From: Candidatus Nomurabacteria bacterium
GTDB taxonomy: Bacteria; Patescibacteriota; Minisyncoccia; Phycocordibacterales; UBA918
Length of the DNA stretch: 64,000 nt
Direction of reading: 5' to 3'
NCBI GenBank assembly: GCA_023898525.1
Contig: CP060227.1
Span: forward strand, 645,836 to 709,835
The position numbers were made by a program, and so were the translations under genes. This document shows positions 18,028 through 43,608 of the stretch, piece by piece. Position 1 is the first letter of the stretch, and each line of letters opens with the position of its first letter. A model generated the notes under the pieces. That model made no database searches. It saw only the letters and a list, made by a program, of their open reading frames with translations, and was not told the DNA's origin.

Positions 18028-18462
18028 TTACCATCCAAACTCTGAATAAGTAATATTATTCCTATAATTTTCAATACCGGCTTTCATGAAGTCAATTGTG
18101 TTGTCTGGTAAATTATCTAAATCAAACCAATCAAGACCATCACATTTATGTGGCTCACAGTTTTTTATCTCGCCCTTGTATGATTTTGTGGTCATAAAAA
18201 AATCTACACGTACATCTTTCTTATTATCCCTATACATCACATGAACCACTTCCAGATCTTCTGGTTTTATATCAATTCCAATTTCTTCTTTTGTTTCCCT
18301 GGCACAGCCTTCCTTGGCTGTTTCGGCGTTCTCTATGTGTCCAGCGGGAACTCCATAAAACCCATCCATAAAACCGGTTTTGAAACGACGCCCTAATAGA
18401 ATCTTATTGTCTTTAATTAACAGTAAGTATACTGAACCGACGCAAGTAAAATCTTTTTTCAT
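18028..18462 (-). CDS. NUDIX hydrolase
   Basis: Nudix box GVPAGHIENAETAKEGCARETKEEIGI (GX5EX7REUXEEXGU). Confidence 0.8.
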   Translation of the reverse strand: MKKDFTCVGSVYLLLIKDNKILLGRRFKTGFMDGFYGVPAGHIENAETAKEGCARETKEEIGIDIKPEDLEVVHVMYRDNKKDVRVDFFMTTKSYKGEIKNCEPHKCDGLDWFDLDNLPDNTIDFMKAGIENYRNNITYSEFGW

Positions 18463-20155: not shown

Positions 20156-20590
20156 TTAGTAAGTGTTACTTTTTTTATGGTGATTAGTTTTAAACATTTC
20201 CGCCAACTTTAAAACACTGGGAAATACATCAAGCTTCCTACAATCTTCCAAGTCAACAAAACGAAGTTCTGTACACTCGTCAGATGGAGTGAAGTTTAAA
20301 TCTTCTAATGTAGTTTCGTATAAAACATTAGCAAACCTAACACCATCACTCTCTCGCCTATCTGTAAGAAAGTAACTGGGTGTATCCGCTACAAAAGTAA
20401 CCTTAAGTCCTGTCTCTTCTTTAATCTCACGTTTTAGATCTTCTTGTGCTGACATACCCCAATCTAATCCTCCGCCAAGTAGTTCCCAGTTACCGTTTTC
20501 TTCTTTGGCAACAAGAAATTTGTTCTTGGTCTCATTTAGAACCAACGCCTTTACACTAACACGATAAAAACACTCGGGTATTGAACTCAT
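20156..20590 (-). CDS. NUDIX hydrolase
   Basis: Nudix box GGGLDWGMSAQEDLKREIKEETGLKV. Confidence 0.8.
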   Translation of the reverse strand: MSSIPECFYRVSVKALVLNETKNKFLVAKEENGNWELLGGGLDWGMSAQEDLKREIKEETGLKVTFVADTPSYFLTDRRESDGVRFANVLYETTLEDLNFTPSDECTELRFVDLEDCRKLDVFPSVLKLAEMFKTNHHKKSNTY

Positions 20591-21299: not shown

Positions 21300-21860
21300 T
21301 TACGATTAAGTCCTCCCTGACAAGGGAGGACTTAATCGCTTAATACATAATACGTATGTCATATCACAAACGTACCATTAGAACATTATCACACTGTTTC
21401 TACGATCTGATATATCACATCGTCTGGACACCTAAATACCGAGGTAAGGTACTGGATAAACCAAAAGTAAAACAAGAAGTCAGTCGCACCATAGGTCAAA
21501 TATGCAAATGGAAACAGTGGGAAATAATAGAGTTAAACATCCAAGATGATCATATCCATCTTATACTTTTAACTTCACCACGTTACTCCATATCGTATGT
21601 GATGCAAATAATCAAAGGAAAATCATCAGCTTGGATGAAGAAGAAAATCAAAAACACCGATAAACTCTATGATCGAGGTTCACTCTGGGCCAGAGGTTAT
21701 TTTGTATCAAGTATTGGTCTAGATGAACACCTGATACGTCGCTACGTACGTCATCAGTACGATAAGAATCAACTAGAACAACCATCGTTGTTTAATCTCT
21801 TTAAGTGATGCTGGCATCGCCAGCTATTATGAAGCCACTGGACCTTAGTCCGGTGGTTTG
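21300..21860 (+). mobile_element. second, divergent IS200/IS605-family element
   Basis: Left hairpin ttaagtcctccc-tgacaa-gggaggacttaa (21310-21339), right-end hairpins (gctggcatcgccagc, ccactggaccttagtccggtgg) flanking a distinct TnpA; boundaries approximate. Confidence 0.6.
21356..21808 (+). CDS. tnpA: IS200/IS605 family transposase TnpA (second, divergent paralog)
   Basis: YDLIYHIVWTPKYR..., HUH motif DDHIHLIL, Tyr region WARGYFVSSIG. Confidence 0.8.
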   Translation: MSYHKRTIRTLSHCFYDLIYHIVWTPKYRGKVLDKPKVKQEVSRTIGQICKWKQWEIIELNIQDDHIHLILLTSPRYSISYVMQIIKGKSSAWMKKKIKNTDKLYDRGSLWARGYFVSSIGLDEHLIRRYVRHQYDKNQLEQPSLFNLFK

Positions 21861-22580: not shown

Positions 22581-22735
22581 GCGGGTGAGAAGAATCGGTC
22601 ACCTTCGCATCAATATTTTGTTCGACCAAGGGTCTCCAAAATATTGTGCTACGCGACCCCGTCGCTTCATACCGAAGCAAAAAGTGTTTTGCTTCAGGCT
22701 TCGCATGAAGCTCTTTTCGATTCTTCTCACCCGCA
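22581..22735. repeat. tRNA-Gly(TCC) 3'-end-associated structured element, copy 1
   Basis: Termini are a direct 17-nt copy (gcgggtgagaagaatcg, identical to 30607-30623 inside tRNA-Gly-TCC) and an inverted copy (cgattcttctcacccgca) of the tRNA 3' end; ~120-bp core shared with 43461-43608, with compensatory changes in three stems. Confidence 0.7.
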
Positions 22736-22786
22736 CAAATGGCCGGCCGAAACGCGAAAGCGTTTCGGCCGGCCATTTGTGCGGGC
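22730..22786. other. perfect GC-rich inverted repeat (26-bp arms)
   Basis: cccgcacaaatggccggccgaaacgc-gaaag-gcgtttcggccggccatttgtgcggg, starting inside the inverted tRNA-end fragment; lies just 3' of the minus-strand CYTH gene. Confidence 0.6.
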
Positions 22787-22849
22787 TATTCAACGATGTT
22801 CGAACTTTTTTAATGAAAATGACCACCCCAAATTGAGGTGGCCAAGGAA

Positions 22850-23455
22850 TTATTGGAATGGATTTTCCATTCCAAAAGTAATTAAAGGTGTTCCGTTATT
22901 GATTACATCTTTTGAAACACCGTATTTATCTTCATAGAGCTGGTCTACCGCGCAAAACTTTGCATCAGACCACTGAAACCCCAGTTTTTCAGACACTGTT
23001 CTCACAACATCCTCTGAAACACCCTCAACCTCCACGAATGAATCGAGAAATGGCCATGTGTCTATTGTCACTTCGACACCATCAAGCAACCAAAGCTCCC
23101 TCAAGGTTTCTTGATAAGCCTTTCGTACACACCCAAGCGACTCGAGCAAGAGTTCAGCGTTTTCGAATGAGTCCACTTGTACACAGACCTCTTTTTGGTC
23201 ATGTATAGCATCACCTCCTACTGATTTAACACTGACTGTGATTTTATCTGACTCGTCTCGTACACGAGCCCATCCATTTACCACCTGCGAGGTTGCTGGA
23301 AGATTGAAAACACTTCTCTTCTGCAAGAATTCACTCTTTTGAAGTTTCGCTCCAGCAGATGAAAGTTTTTCTCTGATTATCTCTTTATCCACCTTAACAA
23401 AGGTAGCTTCGTATTCGATTTGCATATTTTCTCCAACTGGTTTCAAATTCTCCAC
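22850..23455 (-). CDS. CYTH-domain protein (triphosphate tunnel metalloenzyme / class IV adenylyl cyclase-like)
   Basis: N-terminal MQIEYEATFVKV (ExE-type strand) and C-terminal acidic strand VTIDTWPFLDSFVEVEGVSED typical of CYTH; paralogous to the next gene. Confidence 0.6.
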   Translation of the reverse strand: MENLKPVGENMQIEYEATFVKVDKEIIREKLSSAGAKLQKSEFLQKRSVFNLPATSQVVNGWARVRDESDKITVSVKSVGGDAIHDQKEVCVQVDSFENAELLLESLGCVRKAYQETLRELWLLDGVEVTIDTWPFLDSFVEVEGVSEDVVRTVSEKLGFQWSDAKFCAVDQLYEDKYGVSKDVINNGTPLITFGMENPFQ

Positions 23456-23497
23456 AAAATTTATATCACAAATATTGTGTTTGTAAATATCTAGAAA

Positions 23498-24049
23498 TTA
23501 TTCGCACTTATCGAATGTAAAGTAACGGAAGTTCGACACATCGTAACCATAATTCTCAATAATTTTCTTTGGGTCTATAAAAAGCGCCTTGTTCCAATCT
23601 AATCCTAACTTTTCAGCAATATCTTTGACGTGTTGCTCTGTATCTCCCTCAATTTCAAGCATTGGTGGTATTTTTGGCCAAGAATCAATATCTAATACCA
23701 CGCCATCAAACTTAATCTTTCTCCTCTTTTTCTGCTGAACTCTGAAAGGTATAAGTTCCATTTTTTCTAAAAAGGCTTTGAGCTGCTCTGGCTTATCTAC
23801 TGTAAATTCTATTTCTTCTGCACCATCAATTGTATCTGCTGTGATTTGCTTGTGGGTAAAAATGTGTTTTCCATCATAGCTTCTAATACGTGCGTATCTT
23901 CCAGTAGGACTCCAAGTCAAATCCTTATCATAAAAAATTGTCTCCTCGAGCAAATGTTCACCCAAATCAACACCGCCAAGTGAAACAGCTTTTGCAACAA
24001 TCTCCTCGATGTCTATCTCAATAAATCTTGCTTCTATTTCAGTTACCAT
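23498..24049 (-). CDS. CYTH-domain protein (triphosphate tunnel metalloenzyme / class IV adenylyl cyclase-like)
   Basis: MVTEIEARFIEIDIEEI (ExExK/R motif), RYARIRSYDGKHIFTHK, VVLDIDSWPKIPPMLEIEGDTEQ, the CYTH signature strands. Confidence 0.75.
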   Translation of the reverse strand: MVTEIEARFIEIDIEEIVAKAVSLGGVDLGEHLLEETIFYDKDLTWSPTGRYARIRSYDGKHIFTHKQITADTIDGAEEIEFTVDKPEQLKAFLEKMELIPFRVQQKKRRKIKFDGVVLDIDSWPKIPPMLEIEGDTEQHVKDIAEKLGLDWNKALFIDPKKIIENYGYDVSNFRYFTFDKCE

Positions 24050-24057
24050 ATATCTCT

Positions 24058-25098
24058 TTAATTATCTCTTCTAATAACCATCATTTGTTTTGTGTCTCTA
24101 ATACCAGCATTTGTCATACTGTCCATAAATTGACTGTACTCTTTGCGTTCAACAGATTCTGAAGACTCAATCACCAAAGATTTTTGTTCGTCTGAAAGCG
24201 AAACCACCATTTCTATCATTTCTCCAAGACTACGATAAGTATAAATTTCAGACCCCTCCCTTCTTTGCCAAGCGTCAAAAATAAAAGATTCCTGACCTAG
24301 TTCTTGAATAGCAGACTCAAGTCTTGACTGCTCGTACGCACCAGACTCGATTTCACCTAAAATATGTTTGAGTGATTCTCCATATTTTTGAAGTAACGCA
24401 TAATCTAGAAAAGAAACGACGTGTCTCTGCATTTCTCGATGGTAGTGGACTGAAGCAACAGCCTCTGCTCCCTCTCCAATATTCCACATTTCATCAGATA
24501 CCTGATTTACCTTAAGAAATTTCTCTCTAAAGCCACTATCAAAATTTTTTAAGAAGTCTATTAGCGCCGGATTATACTCACCAGATAACAACTCTTGTGA
24601 ATTATCAGGCAGTCCAACATCACGATAAAAAATACGACCACCTTCAGTTAAGTGTGCCGTAAGCTTATCAAAAACTTCTCTCAAGTAGTCACTAACACTT
24701 ACAGTTCCTTCAAGAAAATCTTTATTGTATGAGATAACTTCGTGAATAACCGCAGAAACATTTATCGCAGAAAATGACCTTTCCGCAAACGGAAGCGCTG
24801 TTAAATTGGCAGCTACTCCAAACACTTTATCTTCTGGCTTATGAACACGTCTAACTAATGGTTCTAGAATATCAATTGCATACACTTCTAAATCAGGGTC
24901 TTTTATATCACGTTTTATTTTTTCAACCCCTTGACCACCACCAACACCAACCTCCATAACCCGAACCGTTCCGTCAATCCTGGGTAGCGACTCAGAATCT
25001 AATGCTTTAATGAGCATTCCAACCTTTTCATCAATACCGCCTTTAAGCTGTTCAAGATATTCCGTGTCACCTTTTTCGTTTTTTGAGAAAGTTTCCAT
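24058..25098 (-). CDS. class I SAM-dependent methyltransferase with large uncharacterised C-terminal domain
   Basis: Rossmann motif I VMEVGVGGGQGVEKI, acidic motif II (VYAIDI); start set to METFSK (25098), which follows a terminator hairpin; about 200 aa of unassigned C-terminal sequence. Confidence 0.7.
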   Translation of the reverse strand: METFSKNEKGDTEYLEQLKGGIDEKVGMLIKALDSESLPRIDGTVRVMEVGVGGGQGVEKIKRDIKDPDLEVYAIDILEPLVRRVHKPEDKVFGVAANLTALPFAERSFSAINVSAVIHEVISYNKDFLEGTVSVSDYLREVFDKLTAHLTEGGRIFYRDVGLPDNSQELLSGEYNPALIDFLKNFDSGFREKFLKVNQVSDEMWNIGEGAEAVASVHYHREMQRHVVSFLDYALLQKYGESLKHILGEIESGAYEQSRLESAIQELGQESFIFDAWQRREGSEIYTYRSLGEMIEMVVSLSDEQKSLVIESSESVERKEYSQFMDSMTNAGIRDTKQMMVIRRDN

Positions 25099-25127
25099 AA
25101 AAAAGCAGAGGGTACTAGCCCCTCTGC
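25099..25127 (-). terminator. intrinsic terminator between tmk-like gene and methyltransferase (minus strand)
   Basis: gcagagggtactagcccctctgc hairpin followed by a T-run on the minus strand. Confidence 0.55.
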
Positions 25128-25148
25128 CCAATCATACTATGCTCATCA

Positions 25149-25694
25149 CTAGAATGCCATTTTAACGACCATTTCTGTACATTGCTCAACTGAAAAACTC
25201 TTAGTGTCGAGCGAAACAAATGGCTGCTTTTCAAGAACCAAATTCCTGAACAAAGCTTGTGTTAAATCAAACTGTTTATCCAGAACTCTTTTGTCACCAG
25301 CATCCATACCTCGAGCAACTATCCGCTGGATTTGTGTGTCGGCGTCAGCCACCAAAAGTACAGTCAGGTCTGGTTTAAGAATGGTTGCAAAATCATCGTC
25401 AGTGACCGTTGCACCCATTACCTGATGATAAGTGAGTGTGCTAATCCAGTAGCGGTCACATATCACGTGTTTACCAGAACGCACTAACTCGGAAACCTCT
25501 TCTGAAGCATCCTGAATTGCATTCCGATAGAAAGCATAGTGTTCATCAGCACTAGCATCTCTATGCAACTTTTCGCTGTATTTTTGATACTTCTTCGGCG
25601 GCGTAGCATATGCAACCCCGCCAACCTTATCAGCGATACGTGTAACTAGCGTGCTTTTTCCTGTGCCATCAGCACCTTCAAGTACAAGGAACAT
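25149..25694 (-). CDS. tmk: thymidylate kinase-like P-loop kinase
   Basis: MFLVLEGADGTGKSTLV P-loop, DRYWISTLTYHQ (Tmk DRY/NMP-binding-like), lid-like RIVARGMDAGDKR; 181 aa, shorter than typical Tmk. Confidence 0.7.
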   Translation of the reverse strand: MFLVLEGADGTGKSTLVTRIADKVGGVAYATPPKKYQKYSEKLHRDASADEHYAFYRNAIQDASEEVSELVRSGKHVICDRYWISTLTYHQVMGATVTDDDFATILKPDLTVLLVADADTQIQRIVARGMDAGDKRVLDKQFDLTQALFRNLVLEKQPFVSLDTKSFSVEQCTEMVVKMAF

Positions 25695-25748
25695 TTTTCA
25701 CCTCCAGATTTAAGGAAAATTTGCTAGCGTAAAAATAGTACAATAATT

Positions 25749-26300
25749 TTAATATGTCAATGTTTGTTTCTCAATCTCAGAAAGGACAGTTGAGACGGAG
25801 ATTTTAAAATTGTCACCAACCTGAACCCTATATAAAGGTAGTTCAGCATCTTCAAACACATCATCTACAAGTTGGTCGCGTTCCATACGGCTAGGCTTGT
25901 TGTGTGAACTTCCATCCAGCTCAATTGCAATTAGTGGTGTCATCTTGTCGTTACAAATCAAAAAATCAACGTGTTTAGGTAGTATCTGGTTACGCCTCTG
26001 ATAGTAACCATTTCCGTTCACTACATCCACTATGTCAGCTATACGCATTTTAGGAAAAATAAATAAATTGTCTGGTAGGCCAGATAGTAAAGATTGAAAT
26101 AGAGCCATTTCACTATCGTTCATGACCACTGCTTTCTTTTTGTATTCACGTTGCTTTTCAATAACCACTTCTTTAACCACCTTTTGTTTAAAGGGCGAAA
26201 TTAACTTAAAGAATAGCCACTTAATGAACAAAGCACAAAGCAGCAAGAAAATGACCAGAAAGACCAGATTGAAAAGTAGTTGTAGTAAGTTAGTTTCCAT
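25749..26300 (-). CDS. membrane-anchored DUF2726-domain protein (restriction-endonuclease-like fold)
   Basis: N-terminal TM, then ALFQSLLSGLPDNLFIFPKMRIADIV...VDFLICNDKMTPLIAIELDGSSHNKPSRMERDQLVDDVFEDAELPLYR, matching the DUF2726 pattern (VDFvlcD...PllaIElDdssH...R). Confidence 0.6.
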   Translation of the reverse strand: METNLLQLLFNLVFLVIFLLLCALFIKWLFFKLISPFKQKVVKEVVIEKQREYKKKAVVMNDSEMALFQSLLSGLPDNLFIFPKMRIADIVDVVNGNGYYQRRNQILPKHVDFLICNDKMTPLIAIELDGSSHNKPSRMERDQLVDDVFEDAELPLYRVQVGDNFKISVSTVLSEIEKQTLTY

Positions 26301-26355
26301 ACCTGCTAACTATAGTATGTAGAACCAGAGGTAGCAATTACATACGCTGTGTGTA

Positions 26356-26562
26356 ATGAAACCACGGTTACTAGTTAAGTTTGGAAATACAATCCGTAAA
26401 CTACGAGAGGAGCGTGGTTTGTCCCAAGAACGGTTAGGTGAGATAGCCAAAGTTCACCGCACCTATGTAGGAATGATAGAGCGTGCAGAAAAGAACATCA
26501 CTTTCACAAACATTGAAAAATTTGCAAAAGCCCTTAAAGTAGACATCAAAGACTTATTTTAA
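26356..26562 (+). CDS. XRE-family helix-turn-helix transcriptional regulator
   Basis: 68 aa; NTIRKLREERGLSQERLGEIAKVHRTYVGMIERAEKN, canonical HTH_XRE; divergent from the DUF2726 gene. Confidence 0.8.
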   Translation: MKPRLLVKFGNTIRKLREERGLSQERLGEIAKVHRTYVGMIERAEKNITFTNIEKFAKALKVDIKDLF

Positions 26563-26564
26563 GG

Positions 26565-27320
26565 ATGGAAACTGCAAATATACTAGACAGAAAACTTGCT
26601 GCTATAGAAACCAGTCAGACTGACACTGACTGTTTTAAGCATATCCACGGCTACATAAAATACATACTCGAAACACCAGAGCTGAAAGCAATTCTTGATA
26701 CTGAAGAAAAAGATTTCTACAGAAAAGTTAAGTTCACAGATGACAATATCAAACTAGAACAAGCTAATTATTATCAAGCGTATTTTGTTGCATCGTACGT
26801 CCGTATTTATCTCCCAATCGAACACTACTGGAACAGCAACGAACAAGATGAAAAACAAGACCCTGTTGCACTGCTTTTAATTTGGGGGCCAAAACACCCA
26901 CGAACTATGAAATGGGTGAACGGTCATGATTTCTTTTCTAAAAGAGAACAGCTCAAACAACTTAAAAGCTATTGGCAGTGGTTTGATGGTCAGCGTGATT
27001 TTTACATCAGTGAAATCAAAAACCTACACCTTGCCTTGATTACAGAATTATCTAAACAGAAAGCATTGCCAACTGTGGCCGATGAAAAGCCAGATGTTTT
27101 TCAGATGAACTTAGAAACAGGCGACTTTAATCTTGGTGGTGTTACTGGAACGTTGAACATAACAACCCAAGAATTTAGAGTGATGGCAAAATTATATACA
27201 GCACCCAATCATCGTATGCCATATCTTGATTCAAAGAATATACCCCACCTTTCAAGGTGGGGCTATTTCGATACAATAGTAGGTAATGTCACCAATTATA
27301 AAAAAGTCACACAGTGCTAG
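26565..27320 (+). CDS. hypothetical protein; C-terminal ~25 aa encoded by the IS200 left end
   Basis: 251-aa ORF immediately after the XRE gene; its last residues (...NIPHLSRWGYFDTIVGNVTNYKKVTQC) come from IS200 copy B, suggesting IS insertion into the gene's 3' end. Confidence 0.5.
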   Translation: METANILDRKLAAIETSQTDTDCFKHIHGYIKYILETPELKAILDTEEKDFYRKVKFTDDNIKLEQANYYQAYFVASYVRIYLPIEHYWNSNEQDEKQDPVALLLIWGPKHPRTMKWVNGHDFFSKREQLKQLKSYWQWFDGQRDFYISEIKNLHLALITELSKQKALPTVADEKPDVFQMNLETGDFNLGGVTGTLNITTQEFRVMAKLYTAPNHRMPYLDSKNIPHLSRWGYFDTIVGNVTNYKKVTQC

Positions 27321-27785
27321 TGAACTAGTCTACCACTTTGTTTTCCCTGTGAAATACAGAAGAAAGATATTTACCGAAGAAAACGAACCAACCCTGAAGG
27401 AGTTAGCTTTGGAATTAGAAAAACGTTACGAACTCCACTTTTTAGAGATAGGTATAGATAAAGATCATGTTCACTTTCTTATCCAAGCAATTCCAAGCTA
27501 TGCTCCTTCGTATATTGCCAATACTGTTAAAGGAAACATTACTAAACGTTTTTTCTTGGCTCATCCAGAGGTAAAGATCTTTCTCTGGGGTGGTAACCTT
27601 TGGACTGATGGCTATTACGTTAATACTGTCGGTAACGCTAATATGTCTATTGTTAAAAACTACGTACAGAATCAAGGTTTACCTGAATACAAACAATTAC
27701 ACCACCAAACTCTCTCGTTGTTTTAACTTAAAACTCTCTTCATGTGCCACTGATACCCCGTGTCTTCAGGCCGGGGTAGTTCATT
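27229..27785 (+). mobile_element. IS200/IS605-family insertion sequence, copy B (identical to 20690-21246)
   Basis: 557-bp exact duplicate including both terminal hairpins. Confidence 0.8.
27286..27726 (+). CDS. tnpA: IS200/IS605 family transposase TnpA
   Basis: Identical to 20747-21187. Confidence 0.85.
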   Translation: MSPIIKKSHSASELVYHFVFPVKYRRKIFTEENEPTLKELALELEKRYELHFLEIGIDKDHVHFLIQAIPSYAPSYIANTVKGNITKRFFLAHPEVKIFLWGGNLWTDGYYVNTVGNANMSIVKNYVQNQGLPEYKQLHHQTLSLF

Positions 27786-28149
27786 GGTTAGATGCCTGAA
27801 AACAAATGCCACAGAGGCTTCAAAAACAGATAAAAGAATGCTTGGTACAGTGATTCGTAACATTAAAAGACAGCTTGGTATTCTTCCAGAAGATAAACGA
27901 GTGAACGAGGACATCTTCCATAATGAAATGAAGTTTGGCTATCGGCTTGAAATAAAAGGTTAATTTCTTTTCCATAACATTTCCATATCTTTTCCGTACC
28001 CTTTCGAGGGTCTTTTTTATATCGTGCTGGCATGAGTTTCAGCCAAGGATTAGTAGAACAGTACCAGCGATACATGGAACGTCGTTGTGGGGTTTGTATT
28101 ACTCACGAACAGGCGCAGCTACACCTTGCTTCCTTAGCACGACTCTATA

Positions 28150-28262
28150 CAGCAATTTCTTTTTCGCAAGACTCTGGCGGTGGTCGCGTGCGGCTTTCGC
28201 CTCACCCTCACCCCGAGGCGGGGTGAGGCGAAAGGCCGCGTCGCGGCCTTTCTGCGCAGCAG
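28150..28262. promoter_or_regulatory. GC-rich nested inverted repeats upstream of Rep: candidate rolling-circle origin
   Basis: cctcaccctcaccccgaggcggggtgagg and ggccgcgtcgcggcc hairpins in an otherwise AT-rich locus, 40-150 nt upstream of the HUH Rep start. Confidence 0.35.
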
Positions 28263-28303
28263 AAAGTGACTTGATTTTATATACACATAGTTCGACATCA
28301 TTT

Positions 28304-29146
28304 ATGAGTAGACCACGCACCAGTCATTACAAAATTGTTATTTCAGGACACATTGTTGAGGCAATGCAGTATGCCAAAGCAGTTGGCTACAGTCTTGAGT
28401 CAAGTAAAAAGCAGGCACCGTATCGCAAACGACGAGCTTTAGCTGAGCAAGAGATAACGGCTAGTTCACTCAGTCGGACAAAGAACAGGCTAATTCGATT
28501 GGTGAACGCTAATTGTTTTATGTGGACTGATATAGACGGACAGATAATTAAACCGCAGTTTCTGACCTACACTATCCACGAAAATATTAAGACAGTTGAA
28601 CAAGCTAACCCGCTTTTCACCAACTACATCAAACGACTGAATTACCATACCTACGGCACTAAAGCATCGGTAATTAAATACGTGGTTGTGCCTGAGTTTC
28701 AAAAACGTGGGGCAGTTCACTATCATGCAGTGTTCTTTAACCTGCCTATGATTAACTCGAGGAGAGAATATAAAACGGGTGAGTTTGCAAAAGTTTGGGA
28801 ACATGGATATATCAAAAAACGAAACATAAGCAAAGTACCAAATGTTGGTTTGTATATGACTAAGTATATGACCAAAGATGCCATGGATAGACGACTAGTT
28901 GGCAGAAAGAAATATTTTTCTAGTCGAGGCTTGTTAAAACCAGAGGTAATTACCTATGAACATTTAGCGGGGGATATGATGGACTACTTGTCAGAACTAA
29001 AACCAATGCACGCTTATATCACGTCACCTAATGATGAACGTCCGTTTGTTGAGAACCCTACTTTTTGCGCGACATACAATCTATCCACTGAACAGTTGCA
29101 TGATTTACGAAATTTCTATACCCTCGATAGTGCTAACTTAAGGTAG
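28304..29146 (+). CDS. HUH-superfamily rolling-circle replication initiator (Rep)
   Basis: HUH motif GAVHYHAVFFN and Tyr motif GLYMTKYMTKD (YxxKY). Start set to MSRPRT (28304); the upstream extension of the ORF spans the GC palindromes. Confidence 0.7.
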   Translation: MSRPRTSHYKIVISGHIVEAMQYAKAVGYSLESSKKQAPYRKRRALAEQEITASSLSRTKNRLIRLVNANCFMWTDIDGQIIKPQFLTYTIHENIKTVEQANPLFTNYIKRLNYHTYGTKASVIKYVVVPEFQKRGAVHYHAVFFNLPMINSRREYKTGEFAKVWEHGYIKKRNISKVPNVGLYMTKYMTKDAMDRRLVGRKKYFSSRGLLKPEVITYEHLAGDMMDYLSELKPMHAYITSPNDERPFVENPTFCATYNLSTEQLHDLRNFYTLDSANLR

Positions 29147-29149
29147 CGT

Positions 29150-30614
29150 ATGAAATACATCCTTTATTGTCGAAAATCACAAGAGTCAGAGGATAGACAA
29201 GTGCAGTCACTTGAGGCGCAAGAGCGTGAACTGAATGACTTTGCTAAACGTCATAGTTTGGACATTGTTGGTGTGTATCATGAGAGTCGGTCTGCTAAGA
29301 CGGTCGGTCGTCCAGTATTCAATGAGGTGATTAAGAAAATACAATCAGGCAAGGCTGATGGTTTGCTTTGTTGGAAACTAGACCGCTTAGCGCGTAATTT
29401 CATAGATGGTGGGCTTGTCATTGACCTATTGCAGCACTCAGTCATTAAAAGTATTCAAACCCCTGCTAAAGAATATCTACCAACTGACCCTGTATATCTG
29501 ATGGTGTTTGAGCTTGGCGTGGCTAATCAATTTTCTCGCGACCTGTCTGAAAACGTAAAGCGTGGCAATCGTGAGAAAATTCGCAATGGTGGCTGGCCTG
29601 GATTAGCACCTTTTGGTTATCTAAACGATAAGGCAGAGAAAACGCTTTATGTTGACCCCGACCGTGGGCCATACGTACAGCAGATGTATGAACTCTACGC
29701 CACTGGTTTGTATAGTCTTAAAGAGCTGTCCAATGAGCTTTATGAGCGAGGATTACGCACCAAGCAAGGCAACAAAGTCCATTGCGGTACCATCAGACAT
29801 ATTTTGCGTAACCCAATGTATCACGGCGTGATTCGCTACCGTGGCAGCTATTACCCAGCTAACTTTACTAGCATTACCACCAAAGACCTTGTACGACAAA
29901 AGCATGAACGTCATGGACGGTAGTGCAAAACCGCGGAAGCAAAAGCACCTCTTTCCCTTAACTGGATTGTTTACCTGTGGTGTCTGCGGATATGCCGTGA
30001 CCGCAGAGAAACAAAAAGGTTACACGTACTACCACTGCACTAACGGCAAGGGAATTTGTGACCAAAAGAAACTATTCATTCGTGAGGAAAAACTTGATGA
30101 GCAACTGGCACCAATCTTTGATGATGTTGCATTTGACGAGGAACTAATTGAAATGATGTATCAGGCGGCACTTGAGCAAATGGAACATGACGACCAGTTC
30201 AACACCGCAGCTATTGAGAAACTAGAAAAGGAATTGGCCGCAATCAAACTAAAAGATAATCGCTTACTTGATGCTTTCTTAGCTGAAAATATTGAAAAGG
30301 ATATTTACGATGCAAAACAGGCAGAAATAAAGCATGAACGGATTGCACTAGAGAAACAATTAGCTGGAATGCGCCAAAATCACCAAAACCCCTACGCAAC
30401 TATCGAACGGGCAAAAGAGTTGTTTTTGTTTAGTAATAGAGCCAAATCTGAGTATGCGAATGCCGTTCCTGAGCGAAAACAAGAAATCGCTTATGAGTTA
30501 CTATCGAACGCTTTACTGAAAGACCGAAAAATGGCTCAACCACAACTTAAAAGCCCTTACGATATGCTCGCAAGGACTCCTAAGAATGCTGATTTTGCAA
30601 TTATGTGCGGGTGA
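29150..30614 (+). pseudogene. large serine recombinase with apparent frameshift near 29860-29900; 3' end overlaps tRNA-Gly
   Basis: 29150-29923 encodes the resolvase catalytic domain (YCRKSQESEDRQVQSLEAQ...LDRLARN) and recombinase domain; the zinc-ribbon/coiled-coil part (HLFPLTGLFTCGVCGY..., LFDKV-like TLYDKSMNVMDGSAKPRK) is in a different frame (29841-30614). The TGA stop at 30612-30614 lies inside the tRNA-Gly 3' end. Confidence 0.6.
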
Positions 30615-30676
30615 GAAGAATCGAACTCCCGACTACTGCTTGGAAGGCAGTCGTTTTACCACTAAACTACACCCGC
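30606..30676 (-). tRNA. tRNA-Gly (anticodon TCC)
   Basis: Reverse complement GCGGGTG-TA-GTTT-AGTGGTA-AAAC-G-ACTGC-CTTCCAA-GCAGT-AGTC-GGGAG-TTCGATT-CTTCT-CACCCGC-A folds as a 71-nt cloverleaf with U33 and anticodon UCC; no encoded CCA. Confidence 0.8.
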
Positions 30677-43460: not shown

Positions 43461-43608
43461 GAGGGAGAATCGGTCACCTTCGCATCAATATTTTGTTCGT
43501 TCTGCGAACTCCAAAATATTGTGCTACGCGACCTCGTCGTTCCGTTCTGATTCTTCGTACCTCAGAATCAGGCTTCGCACGGAACTCTTTTCGATTCTCC
43601 CTGGCCGC
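43461..43608. repeat. tRNA-Gly(GCC) 3'-end-associated structured element, copy 2
   Basis: Termini agggagaatcg (direct) and cgattctccctggccgc (inverted) match the adjacent tRNA-Gly-GCC 3' end; conserved core with covarying stems relative to 22581-22735. Confidence 0.7.

Follow-up and report, generated by a model that had tools for sequence, protein, structure and literature searches.

Pathways that run from a dNTP pyrophosphatase through a dNMP-modifying enzyme to a dNMP kinase are represented by the cellular Dut-ThyA-Tmk series and by gp56-gp42-gp1 of phage T4. Viperin-kinase (pVip/VakA) and PDC-M51 systems pair a Tmk-like kinase with a SAM-using enzyme acting on nucleotides, while the plant proteins AtTTM1 and AtTTM2 combine a P-loop kinase with a CYTH domain, the kinase domain being uridine-kinase-like rather than Tmk-like. 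These TTM1/TTM2 fusion proteins provide a plant precedent for a partnership between a P-loop kinase and a CYTH protein (PMC8233210, PMC9582702). PPK3 of Sulfolobus is a thymidylate-kinase-like polyphosphate kinase that is annotated as Tmk yet is no dTMP kinase and has lost its dTMP-site residues; in every PPK3 operon, a catalytic paralogue (cPPK3) and a regulatory one (rPPK3) are encoded along with PPX, SixA, CHAD, or Pst (PMC12995831). The genomes of Parcubacteria and other members of the CPR are tiny and lack de novo nucleotide synthesis, and recognizable tmk, cmk, and gmk genes are reportedly missing from them (PMC4508563); a three-enzyme nucleotide-centered module retained in such reduced genomes would be notable.

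In a window of 64,000 nucleotides from a Candidatus Nomurabacteria bacterium (contig CP060227.1), four minus-strand genes encode a Tmk-like kinase, a SAM-dependent methyltransferase, and two CYTH proteins; all four open reading frames lie where a sequence-only reading of this DNA had put them. The logic that these genes would have in common with Dut-ThyA-Tmk and T4 is a phosphoanhydride hydrolase, one-carbon addition to a nucleotide monophosphate, and Tmk-type rephosphorylation. However, the hydrolase of those pathways is a dUTPase or MazG, whereas that of the Parcubacterial module is a CYTH (or NUDIX) protein, the modifier is a cysteine-free SAM-dependent class I methyltransferase, and the module belongs to a cellular Parcubacterium instead of a phage. 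Relative to the viperin-kinase and PDC-M51 systems, the SAM enzyme is a methyltransferase, no radical-SAM gene is present in the window, and the module generally sits in housekeeping surroundings instead of a defense island. In contrast to the plant TTM proteins, the CYTH of the window is tandemly duplicated, separately encoded, interchangeable with NUDIX, and accompanied by a methyltransferase. Literature searches on PDC-M51, VakA, and the kinase-methyltransferase-CYTH combination found nothing.

The kinase (181 amino acids [aa]; 25149..25694, minus strand) belongs to a Parcubacteria-specific subfamily of the Tmk superfamily of P-loop kinases, marked by the motifs Y-x-TPP, HY-FYR, DRYW, and T..YH. 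Its match to Pfam Thymidylate_kin (5e-20) and its GADGTGKST and DRYW motifs bear out the call of a thymidylate-kinase-like P-loop kinase. The P-loop GxxGxGK[ST], the DR[YFH] motif, and the dTMPK fold expected of a dTMP kinase are all present, and the P-loop, DRY, and LID arginines are intact. The fold is that of Tmk and not of a polynucleotide kinase. No second, canonical tmk was found in the window and the cellular loci, which together comprise 366 kb or ~1 to 6% of each genome (contigs only), a coverage too small for this absence to carry weight.

The methyltransferase (346 aa; 24058..25098, minus strand) is a class I SAM-dependent small-molecule enzyme with a large helical cap insertion. 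Since all homologues align from that Met, its start is most likely the ATG at 25098 (METFSK) rather than a TTG within the neighboring hairpin. The N-terminal part matches Pfam Methyltransf_11 (3e-6), and the GxGxG SAM motif, the acidic residue ending strand 2, and the Rossmann fold are all present; beyond about residue 170, no Pfam match was found. While the assignment as a Rossmann SAM methyltransferase held, the ~200-aa C-terminal domain that had been proposed did not. In an AlphaFold 2 (AF2) model (pLDDT, 82), this part consists of a helical insertion (~residues 177 to 302), after which come the two final strands of the Rossmann sheet, so it is modeled as a cap within a small-molecule methyltransferase fold and not as a separate domain. 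Invariant Arg, His, and Lys residues abound in the cap, as would suit an anionic substrate, and the best structural matches are to small-molecule enzymes rather than to cap or Hen1 methyltransferases. Likeness to capped class I methyltransferases (the SABATH enzymes for xanthosine and salicylate, 2eg5 and 1m6e; fatty-acid O-methyltransferase 5f2k; OxaG, TmtA, and PEAMT) is limited to 8 to 18% identity, and the cap motifs HREMQRH, WxxREGxExYT, R..Y, and KQ are peculiar to the family in the window. The family is rare, with 30 representatives at E ≤ 1e-30 among 1.84 billion; a scan of the GTDB species representatives with the methyltransferase alignment gave no match, and three distant homologues came up via the kinase scan.

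Several possible activities of the methyltransferase were rejected. Both DNA-methyltransferase motifs ([DNS]PP[YFW] and the PCQ catalytic cysteine) are absent, and the motifs and the fold led to rejection of a DNA methyltransferase or restriction-modification enzyme. The protein contains no cysteines, and the family alignment has no invariant Cys column. Since ThyA, TrmA, and DNMT C5 chemistry is impossible without a cysteine, a SAM-dependent thymidylate synthase (dUMP to dTMP) was rejected for the known mechanism. Phage-type thymidine hypermodification, raised in connection with the Tmk-like kinase, was dropped together with a phage origin because scans of IMG/VR returned no relative of the methyltransferase and only generic phage kinases (22 to 33% identity).

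CYTH1 (183 aa; 23498..24049, minus strand; EIEAR...LEIEG) is a triphosphate-tunnel metalloenzyme, and CYTH2 (191 aa; 22850..23425, minus strand; IEYEAT...VEVEG) is a paralogous triphosphate-tunnel protein. Pfam CYTH scores 35.7 bits for CYTH1 (1e-8), above the cutoff of 23.2, and 21.7 bits for CYTH2, slightly under it. The profiles nevertheless match solved TTM/CYTH structures (2dc4 and SaTTM 7ns8 for CYTH1; SaTTM 7ns8 for CYTH2, 3.5e-6), and hhalign relates the two proteins to each other (99.4%; sequence identity, 29%), which upholds the identification of two CYTH paralogues. The tunnel motifs and metal ligands of SaTTM (Saci_0718, PDB 7ns8) are common to both: CYTH1 has E4-x-E6-x-R8 and E132-x-E134, CYTH2 has E4-x-E6-x-T8 and E132-x-E134, and the four metal-binding glutamates align with SaTTM E5/E7/E135/E137. 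CYTH1 thus has a conservative replacement for the Lys of the ExExK motif, and the CYTH2 of the window has lost it, although the L030 orthologue of CYTH2 has the Lys. Proteins of the CYTH2 type occur in the close clade, in locus L091, and as the only CYTH in L030 and L097. The CYTH2 start is most likely the ATG at 23425 (MQIEYEATF), as in all homologues; this makes the CYTH1-CYTH2 gap 72 nucleotides (nt) and overturns the claim that all gaps other than that after the kinase gene are under 50 nt.

The four genes form part of a conserved cassette of ~3 kb (22793..25767, minus strand, delimited by blastn) that comprises promoter, kinase, internal terminator, methyltransferase, CYTH1, CYTH2, and terminator. 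Outside the window, the same cassette was found in three unrelated contexts (L011, 92% identity; L003, 84%; L010, 81%), with sharp ends and unrelated flanks. A consensus scan predicts its promoter at 25732..25760 (minus strand; TTGACA-17-TATTTT), with a GGAGG ribosome-binding site after it. Neither TTGACAT nor the -10 region varies among the four contexts, and homology begins exactly at the promoter. An intrinsic-terminator-like hairpin with a T-run separates the kinase and methyltransferase genes (25099..25129, minus strand), the T-run abutting the methyltransferase ATG. The hairpin, which had been noticed from the sequence, proved real (25103-25129 plus a T-run; ΔG, -19.7; z, -4.7), and each of the 21 relatives examined likewise has a hairpin and T-run after the stop codon of the kinase gene, albeit with unrelated stem sequences. 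In Rfam, only tRNAs exceeded the threshold, and the conserved hairpin corresponds to no riboswitch or leader family. A further terminator (22820..22844, minus strand; z, -4.3) closes the cassette and is kept in L011 and L003, while a different hairpin takes its place in L010. With these promoter-like and terminator-like sequences, the cassette appears to be an autonomous unit that has been relocated between contexts as a whole.

More widely in Parcubacteria, the Tmk-like kinase of this same type (~182 aa) usually sits on the chromosome and ends a greA unit. Both a SAM-dependent enzyme and a phosphoanhydride hydrolase (CYTH or NUDIX) recur beside it, each adjoining the kinase in 24 of 27 arrangements; these hand-encoded tallies include L029, assigned by gene length and order, and the weaker call of X208 proteins as CYTH (hhalign E of 3e-4 to the L018 group, a moderate link, and none to CYTH1). 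The SAM-dependent partners are cap-methyltransferases, NUDIX-Methyltransf_25 fusions, Methyltransf_24/3, and SET plus radical SAM; the methyltransferase domain of the NUDIX fusion has no detectable relation to the family in the window. Conversely, all methyltransferase homologues on long-enough contigs adjoin the same kinase family plus a CYTH or NUDIX gene. The gene orders (K, kinase; MT, methyltransferase) include K-MT-CYTH(-CYTH2), greA-K-MT-CYTH, greA-MT-K-CYTH, MT-CYTH-greA-K, and NUDIX-MT-K, so the co-occurrence across genomes that had been set as a check recurs in permuted orders and with CYTH/NUDIX and methyltransferase swaps. Fusions were also observed: seven of nine long, distant members of the methyltransferase family join the cap-methyltransferase to a C-terminal P-loop small-molecule kinase domain (AAA_17/18/33/CoaE), and one more distant protein, matching the methyltransferase core only, is a methyltransferase-NUDIX fusion. 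P0073 was rejected as a kinase-methyltransferase fusion, since it consists of a 43-residue kinase fragment and a truncated methyltransferase and is probably a deletion or assembly chimera. L018, L019, and L022 have greA-K-CYTH beside ribonucleotide reductase, with no methyltransferase within 3 kb. Since most of the surveyed loci come from one bacterial clade, the conserved gene order partly reflects shared ancestry rather than selection.

The genes, their folds, their intact catalytic motifs, the promoter-like and terminator-like sequences of the cassette, and the evolutionary linkage are in hand. The recurrence of the genes in shuffled orders, the replacement of CYTH by NUDIX and among three methyltransferase families, and the fusion of components imply a selected function missed by current annotation and suggest a pathway, so far undescribed, whose substrate is a phosphorylated compound resembling a nucleotide. 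We therefore tentatively propose, at a probability of roughly 45%, that the four genes constitute one functional module with a single phosphorylated small molecule as its substrate, for which a (deoxy)nucleotide is the most plausible candidate. CYTH, or NUDIX in other lineages, would cleave a phosphoanhydride, e.g., NTP to NMP or NDP; the methyltransferase would N- or O-methylate the nucleotide; and the kinase would phosphorylate the resulting monophosphate back toward the di- and triphosphate. In favor of this proposal, the kinase retains an aromatic nucleobase-type pocket (HY-FYR, DRYW, T..Y), unlike PPK3. We infer the nucleotide substrate from the enzyme families alone, and the step order and the methylated atom are likewise presumptive. 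Counting against the nucleotide-hydrolase step, SaTTM, the closest characterized CYTH relative, prefers inorganic triphosphate over NTPs (PMC8233210). In addition, the strong terminator after the kinase in every locus means that the kinase and downstream genes are not simply cotranscribed, and the genes may adjoin each other partly because greA and the kinase form a conserved housekeeping unit alongside which other genes accumulated.

The last point is developed furthest in a rival explanation under which the kinase would be nothing more than the clade's divergent dTMP kinase, or else an NMP kinase of broad specificity, with CYTH/NUDIX and the methyltransferase being nucleotide-pool genes or unrelated neighbors in a conserved region and no new pathway involved. 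However, the kinase scores 69.0 bits against TIGR00041, below the equivalog cutoff of 83.25, and NCBI labels its family hypothetical protein, AAA family ATPase, or deoxynucleoside kinase but never dTMP kinase. The canonical EPGGT loop is replaced by the invariant Y-x-TPP, and an invariant His90 stands at the position of the S..AYQ Gln, which contacts thymine in S. aureus Tmk; the stacking aromatic, T86, and Y89 are retained. Since the methyltransferase partnership also survives permuted orders, unrelated methyltransferase families, and fusion with a non-Tmk kinase domain, and the cassette in the window's clade moves as a unit, we regard this explanation as unlikely, if a serious one. The nucleobase-type pocket also bears on a PPK3-like polyphosphate- or triphosphate-dependent nucleotide kinase that, with the CYTHs as inorganic triphosphatases, would manage inorganic polyphosphates. 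The kinase lies at similar sequence and structure distances from PPK3, and NUDIX is common to both neighborhoods, yet its pocket is conserved rather than lost. Each locus has one kinase gene and no paralogue pair, and the top 25 Pfam families by frequency among 118 neighbor proteins do not include PPX, SixA, CHAD, or Pst; PPK3 membership was rejected for want of the pair and of a PPX, CHAD, or Pst neighbor. Because the linked methyltransferase would also be left without a role, polyphosphate management is very improbable.

Defense would require that a methylated nucleotide poison phage polymerases, as with viperins and their kinases, with CYTH/NUDIX supplying substrate or protecting the host and greA rescuing host RNA polymerase. 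In PADLOC, "viperins associated with kinases" have a model to themselves, and its PDC-M51B and VakA models match the kinase (1e-35 and 2e-15, respectively), but none matches the methyltransferase or either CYTH, and no PDC-M51A component occurs among the window genes or the top families of the 118 neighbor proteins. At L017, the kinase lies between two radical-SAM plus CYTH pairs, one radical-SAM protein having a MoaA/viperin-like N-terminal part; such genes adjoin the kinase at this locus only and score below curated cutoffs. Although the cassette in the window is carried by an integrated element, where its neighbors are a nuclease-fold DUF2726 protein and an XRE protein resembling restriction-modification control proteins, most loci have housekeeping surroundings and not defense islands, the IMG/VR scans found no viral or counterdefense homologues, and the greA linkage suggests constitutive expression. 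We consider defense decidedly unlikely. There is a slimmer chance still that the CYTHs are class IV adenylate/nucleotide cyclases producing a cyclic-nucleotide signal or that the three enzymes serve in healing or capping the 5' ends of RNA, the CYTH as a TTM RNA triphosphatase, the kinase as a P-loop RNA kinase, and the methyltransferase as one of the cap or Hen1-like type. The partner CYTHs of L018 and L031 exceed the NCBIfam CyaB cutoff (TIGR00318; 68 and 90 versus 58 bits), whereas CYTH1 (34.5 bits) and CYTH2 (33.4 bits) fall far short of the cutoff of 57.95, and sequence similarity network (SSN) analysis sets true AC-IV apart from the archaeal-type TTMs that they resemble (PMC8233210). TTM enzymes do include RNA triphosphatases (PMC8233210), and the MT-CYTH-greA-K arrangement embeds greA, with its tie to transcription, in the operon; against this, the neighborhoods contain no guanylyltransferase or ligase, and the structural matches of the methyltransferase and the fold of the kinase, given above, differ from those of RNA-end enzymes.

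If the kinase of the proposed nucleotide module is the missing Tmk, a gap in CPR metabolic reconstructions would be closed and marker-gene HMMs would be seen to undercount Tmk. If it is instead pathway specific, the module would give a cellular organism a new way of making a modified nucleotide with SAM, and its key enzyme would come from a methyltransferase family that is rare and distinctive in structure. As a long shot, the module may make a novel free methylated (deoxy)nucleoside di- or triphosphate, either an O-/N-methylated chain terminator or a signaling nucleotide, whose target would be a polymerase, with the tightly linked GreA-like secondary-channel factor as a coevolved rescuer or tuner of host RNA polymerase. 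It would then be a SAM-methyltransferase counterpart of the viperin-kinase antivirals or a new alarmone pathway in minimal-genome bacteria.

The module is probably native to the Parcubacteria clade in which the kinase usually closes the greA transcription unit; in the window's clade, it would have turned into a self-contained cassette that carries a promoter of its own, captured here by a small element integrated at tRNA-Gly(tcc). The module is not confined to mobile elements. In addition to the cassette, DUF2726, and XRE, the element (~8.1 kb, 22581..30676) carries Rep, a 251-aa open reading frame that a copy of IS200 interrupts, and a putative split serine recombinase read from its translation. 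Pfam searches place DUF2726 at 25749-26300 and XRE at 26356-26562, as noted before, but neither accompanies any of the cassette's relatives, and both are incidental neighbors. A 17-nt direct repeat, CGATTCTTCTCACCCGC (minus-strand reading), lies at 22581-22597 and 30607-30623, with an inverted copy at 22716-22737. The GC palindrome that had been thought to end the gene block exists (22730-22785; 56 nt, perfect, GC rich; z, -12.2), but it lies outside the conserved cassette and is part of the integrated element.

The ORF listing placed four consecutive, co-oriented genes on the minus strand of the window, where the sequence-only reading had put them: a Tmk-like kinase (25149-25694; Pfam Thymidylate_kin, 5e-20), a SAM-dependent methyltransferase (MTase; 24058-25098), and two CYTH proteins, CYTH1 (23498-24049) and CYTH2 (22850-23425). 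Since all MTase homologues align from the Met encoded at ATG 25098, and TTG 25131 sits inside a hairpin, we set the MTase start at ATG 25098 (346 aa). CYTH2 starts at ATG 23425 (191 aa, in agreement with all homologues), so that its gap to CYTH1 is 72 nt rather than the <50 nt previously stated for every gap other than the hairpin-bearing one.

Comparison by blastn with loci fetched through homologues showed that window positions 22793-25767 are 92%, 84%, and 81% identical to L011, L003, and L010, respectively, and detected no flanking sequence common to the four. The homology begins precisely at a TTGACA-17-TATTTT promoter, which is conserved and precedes a GGAGG ribosome-binding site, and ends about 25 nt beyond the terminator that closes the block (22820-22844). 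Because it runs from promoter to just past terminator, the block is a self-contained transcription cassette. Its neighbours are cobW/YceG/SpoU in L003, sigma-70/EF-P/RecA in L010, and HIT/LMW phosphatase in L011, and in the window it lies within an element integrated at tRNA-Gly(tcc); its GC content (0.39) equals that of the window. The block is of greater interest for its conservation as a module of Parcubacteria than for being carried by an island.

The predicted internal terminator was recovered as a hairpin at 25103-25129 (GGGCAGAGGGG-CTAGTA-CCCTCTGC, then TTTTTT; dG -19.7, z -4.7). A GC-rich hairpin and T-run follow the kinase stop codon in 21/21 loci examined, with unrelated stem sequences, so the kinase ends a transcription unit, usually greA-kinase; expression of the genes 3' of it would depend on read-through or on promoters of their own. 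In the window, the MTase ATG comes directly after the T-run. The kinase and CYTH2 have Shine-Dalgarno sequences (GGAGG and GGAGA), whereas the MTase has none: the sole similar sequence near its start (GAGGGG, within 25096-25135) lies some 20 nt upstream, where the 5' hairpin arm sequesters it. This layout fits an attenuation of MTase-CYTH expression relative to the kinase. It also weakens the view of the genes as simply "one operon."

In every context with a long enough contig, the MTase occurs together with a kinase of this one family and with either a CYTH or a NUDIX protein. The order kinase-MTase-CYTH1-CYTH2 is found in the window, L003, L010, L011, and L091; other orders are greA-kinase-MTase-CYTH (L005-L009), kinase-MTase-CYTH (the contig of protein P0007), greA-MTase-kinase-CYTH2-like (L030, L097), MTase-CYTH-greA-kinase, in which ORFs abut or overlap (L031, L032, L094-L096, L098, L099), NUDIX-MTase-kinase (L089/L090), and MTase-kinase (L088). 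Kinases lacking the window-type MTase still have equivalent partners. These comprise greA-kinase-(divergent CYTH) convergent with a NUDIX-Methyltransf_25 fusion (L015, L020, L021, L023, L024); NUDIX-Methyltransf_24/3-kinase (L027, L028, and L029, the last assigned solely from gene lengths and order); and two radical-SAM plus CYTH pairs with a SET-domain protein (L017). L033, grouped with the NUDIX-Methyltransf_24/3-kinase loci, shows only that type of MTase beside the kinase, and no NUDIX was seen. When the gene tables were tallied by hand, 24/27 kinase arrangements had an adjacent SAM-dependent enzyme and 24/27 had a CYTH or NUDIX; the three without the former are greA-kinase-CYTH loci adjoining ribonucleotide reductase, and the three in which no hydrolase is visible either stop at the end of a contig or are unresolved for other reasons. 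The commonest Pfam families among 118 neighbour proteins from 17 loci were GreA (14), methyltransferase domains (10), NUDIX (9), CYTH (8, plus five divergent), HATPase_c (5), radical SAM (4), and ribonucleotide reductase (3). Seven of nine long, distant MTase-family members (685-760 aa) end in a P-loop small-molecule kinase domain of the AAA_17/AAA_18/AAA_33/CoaE type, which is not a Tmk, so the partnership is backed by fusion besides adjacency. One more distant protein, matching the MTase core only, is fused to NUDIX.

Several further features of these loci were observed. The greA-like genes show tight linkage to the kinase, and in many cases the stop and start codons overlap (L018:5523-6017, L005:800-1276, L031:6514-6999, L094:5743-6225, and others), and at L026 the kinase lies between two of them. 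Their products have an unusual conserved coiled-coil tip, GGDxWHDN, and only 2/14 match the Pfam GreA N-terminal domain. The NUDIX-Methyltransf_25 fusion (~380-410 aa; L015:7247-8392, L020:8140-9369, L021:1859-2998, L024:8219-9364) is repeatedly convergent with greA-kinase and a CYTH-like ~200-aa protein, and its MTase domain has no detectable relationship to the window MTase. In one Parcubacteria MAG (L017:3701-10281), the radical-SAM plus CYTH pairs and SET-domain protein surround the kinase together with a 549-aa HATPase_c protein; the first radical-SAM enzyme is MoaA/viperin-like in its N-terminal part, and the locus combines another kind of SAM chemistry with the kinase/CYTH backbone. A ~545-aa protein with C-terminal HATPase_c and weak PADLOC PDC-M43B matches lies a few kb from the greA-kinase unit in several loci (L015:2843-4477, L017:7237-8886, L019:2432-4075, L023:4832-6376).

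In the PDB, a profile of 20 kinase family members had no matches other than thymidylate kinases (best, 3e-11). The kinase scores 69 bits against TIGR00041, under the curated cut-off of 83. It has an invariant Y-x-TPP where canonical Tmks have the EPGGT loop and an invariant His in place of the thymine-contacting Gln of S. aureus Tmk, while retaining the P-loop Asp, DRY(W), T..Y, and an aromatic stretch, HY-FYR. Retention of the DRY Tyr and of the aromatic pocket suggests an acceptor of the deoxynucleotide type; the altered loop and the Gln-to-His change suggest one other than plain dTMP. The family comprises >120 clusters, and every named member is from Patescibacteria/Parcubacteria; NCBI names them "hypothetical protein," "AAA family ATPase," or "deoxynucleoside kinase," and JGI "thymidylate kinase."

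MTase residues ~50-170 match Methyltransf_11/25/12 in Pfam, and nothing outside them matches Pfam, NCBIfam, or PADLOC, consistent with the earlier failure to recognise the C-terminal half. The ~200-aa separate domain proposed for that half gave way to an AF2 model (pLDDT 82, pTM 0.82) predicting a Rossmann core with a helical insertion (~177-302) inside the fold and then two terminal strands. The longest structural alignments (208-213 residues) were to capped enzymes, namely, xanthosine and salicylate SABATH MTases and a fatty-acid O-MTase. Several charged motifs in the cap are invariant (HREMQRH, WxxREGxExYT, R318/Y321, K337/Q338). Since the sequence contains neither cysteine nor a DNA-MTase motif, classical C5-pyrimidine methylation is excluded and DNA methylation is unlikely. 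The suggested DNA-modification role is unsupported as a general property. The family is rare: a word-indexed search returned 7 clusters in 5.8 billion proteins, and an exhaustive profile search returned 30 representatives (E<=1e-30) in 1.84 billion. The two CYTH proteins are paralogues, as proposed: CYTH1 matches Pfam CYTH at 1e-8, and CYTH2, marginally below the Pfam cut-off, aligns to CYTH1 at 99.4% by hhalign (29% identity). Both match solved triphosphate-tunnel enzymes (SaTTM 7ns8, PH1819 2dc4, 1yem) and retain the four glutamates that bind two metals in SaTTM; neither reaches the CyaB adenylate-cyclase cut-off.

Given the constant kinase, the interchangeable CYTH/NUDIX hydrolase, the interchangeable SAM-dependent modifier, and the MTase-kinase fusions, we propose, with a probability of roughly 0.45, a pathway of three steps that acts on a single phosphorylated small molecule; a (deoxy)nucleotide is the most plausible one. 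CYTH or NUDIX, as a phosphoanhydride hydrolase, would hydrolyse a phosphoanhydride, the MTase would perform N- or O-methylation, and the kinase would re-phosphorylate. This logic resembles that of Dut-ThyA-Tmk, the phage T4 gp56-gp42-gp1 pathway, and viperin-kinase pairs, although the module's enzymes come from different families. The module would belong to a known kind, the nucleotide-modifying hydrolase/modifier/kinase pathway. PADLOC, NCBIfam, Pfam, and such literature as could be searched yielded no description of the combination, in line with the sequence-only reading.

It is possible, if rather doubtful, that the kinase simply serves as housekeeping Tmk, the canonical gene being "poorly represented" in this lineage (PMC4508563); no second tmk was found in the 366 kb of loci examined, too little sequence to decide. 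A viperin-like defence making a modified nucleotide appears improbable: the kinase matches PADLOC PDC-M51B (1e-35), from a candidate system, and the viperin-associated kinase VakA (2e-15), L017 has radical-SAM genes, and the window context is mobile, but no partner-gene match was found and the loci lie in mostly housekeeping surroundings. The earlier defence framing is unsupported as a general property. PPK3-like polyphosphate/triphosphate metabolism (PPK3, PMC12995831) is very improbable, since two defining PPK3 features are lacking and the MTase is left with no role, and we would hardly expect cyclic-nucleotide signalling or RNA-end processing.

The claim that the cassette is carried on an island holds for the window, although the mobile-element framing is unsupported as a general property of the module. 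A 17-nt direct-orientation copy of the tRNA-Gly(tcc) 3' end (22581-22597) on one side and the tRNA itself (30605-30676), abutted by Rep and a serine recombinase, on the other bound an ~8.1-kb integrated element; the recombinase was called solely by reading its translation. Besides the cassette, Rep, and the recombinase, the element contains DUF2726, an XRE/control-protein-like gene, and a 251-aa ORF that an IS200 copy interrupts; with respect to the module, DUF2726 and XRE are bystanders. The remaining window is ordinary CPR-type chromosome (NusA, trigger factor, RNase Y, PilB/PilC, DUF5667, CCA-adding enzyme). Beyond the cassette terminator lies the GC palindrome already remarked on, a perfect 56-nt palindrome (22730-22785; dG -59 kcal/mol, z -12.2) whose arm starts with the acceptor end of tRNA-Gly(tcc); before it comes a 22-nt copy of the tRNA-Gly 3' end in inverted orientation (22716-22737). 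The region 22716-22790 may be a recombination-site remnant of the element.

Since the recombinase is split into two overlapping ORFs (29150-29923 and 29841-30614) by frameshift or pseudogenisation, the element may now be immobile. Near-identical IS200/IS605-type tnpA copies (20687-~21250 and 27226-~27790; 1 mismatch in ~565 nt), 6.5 kb apart, flank the cassette region on both sides, and a different, third Y1-transposase gene lies at 21356-21808. The XRE protein (26356-26562) matches PADLOC restriction-modification 'Control_protein' models (6e-21), and the unknown 251-aa ORF directly behind it (26565-27320) is truncated by the second tnpA copy, so that the two may represent the decayed form of a toxin locus or an R-M-like one. 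An 85-nt direct repeat (85% identical; 22591-22675 and 43466-43550, the latter ~110 nt from tRNA-Gly(gcc)) could mark remnants of related integration sites, since both copies begin with the tRNA T-loop-like AGAATCG. Immediately outside the element are two NUDIX hydrolase genes (18028-18462 and 20156-20590), which are notable because NUDIX stands in for CYTH in related kinase-methyltransferase modules.
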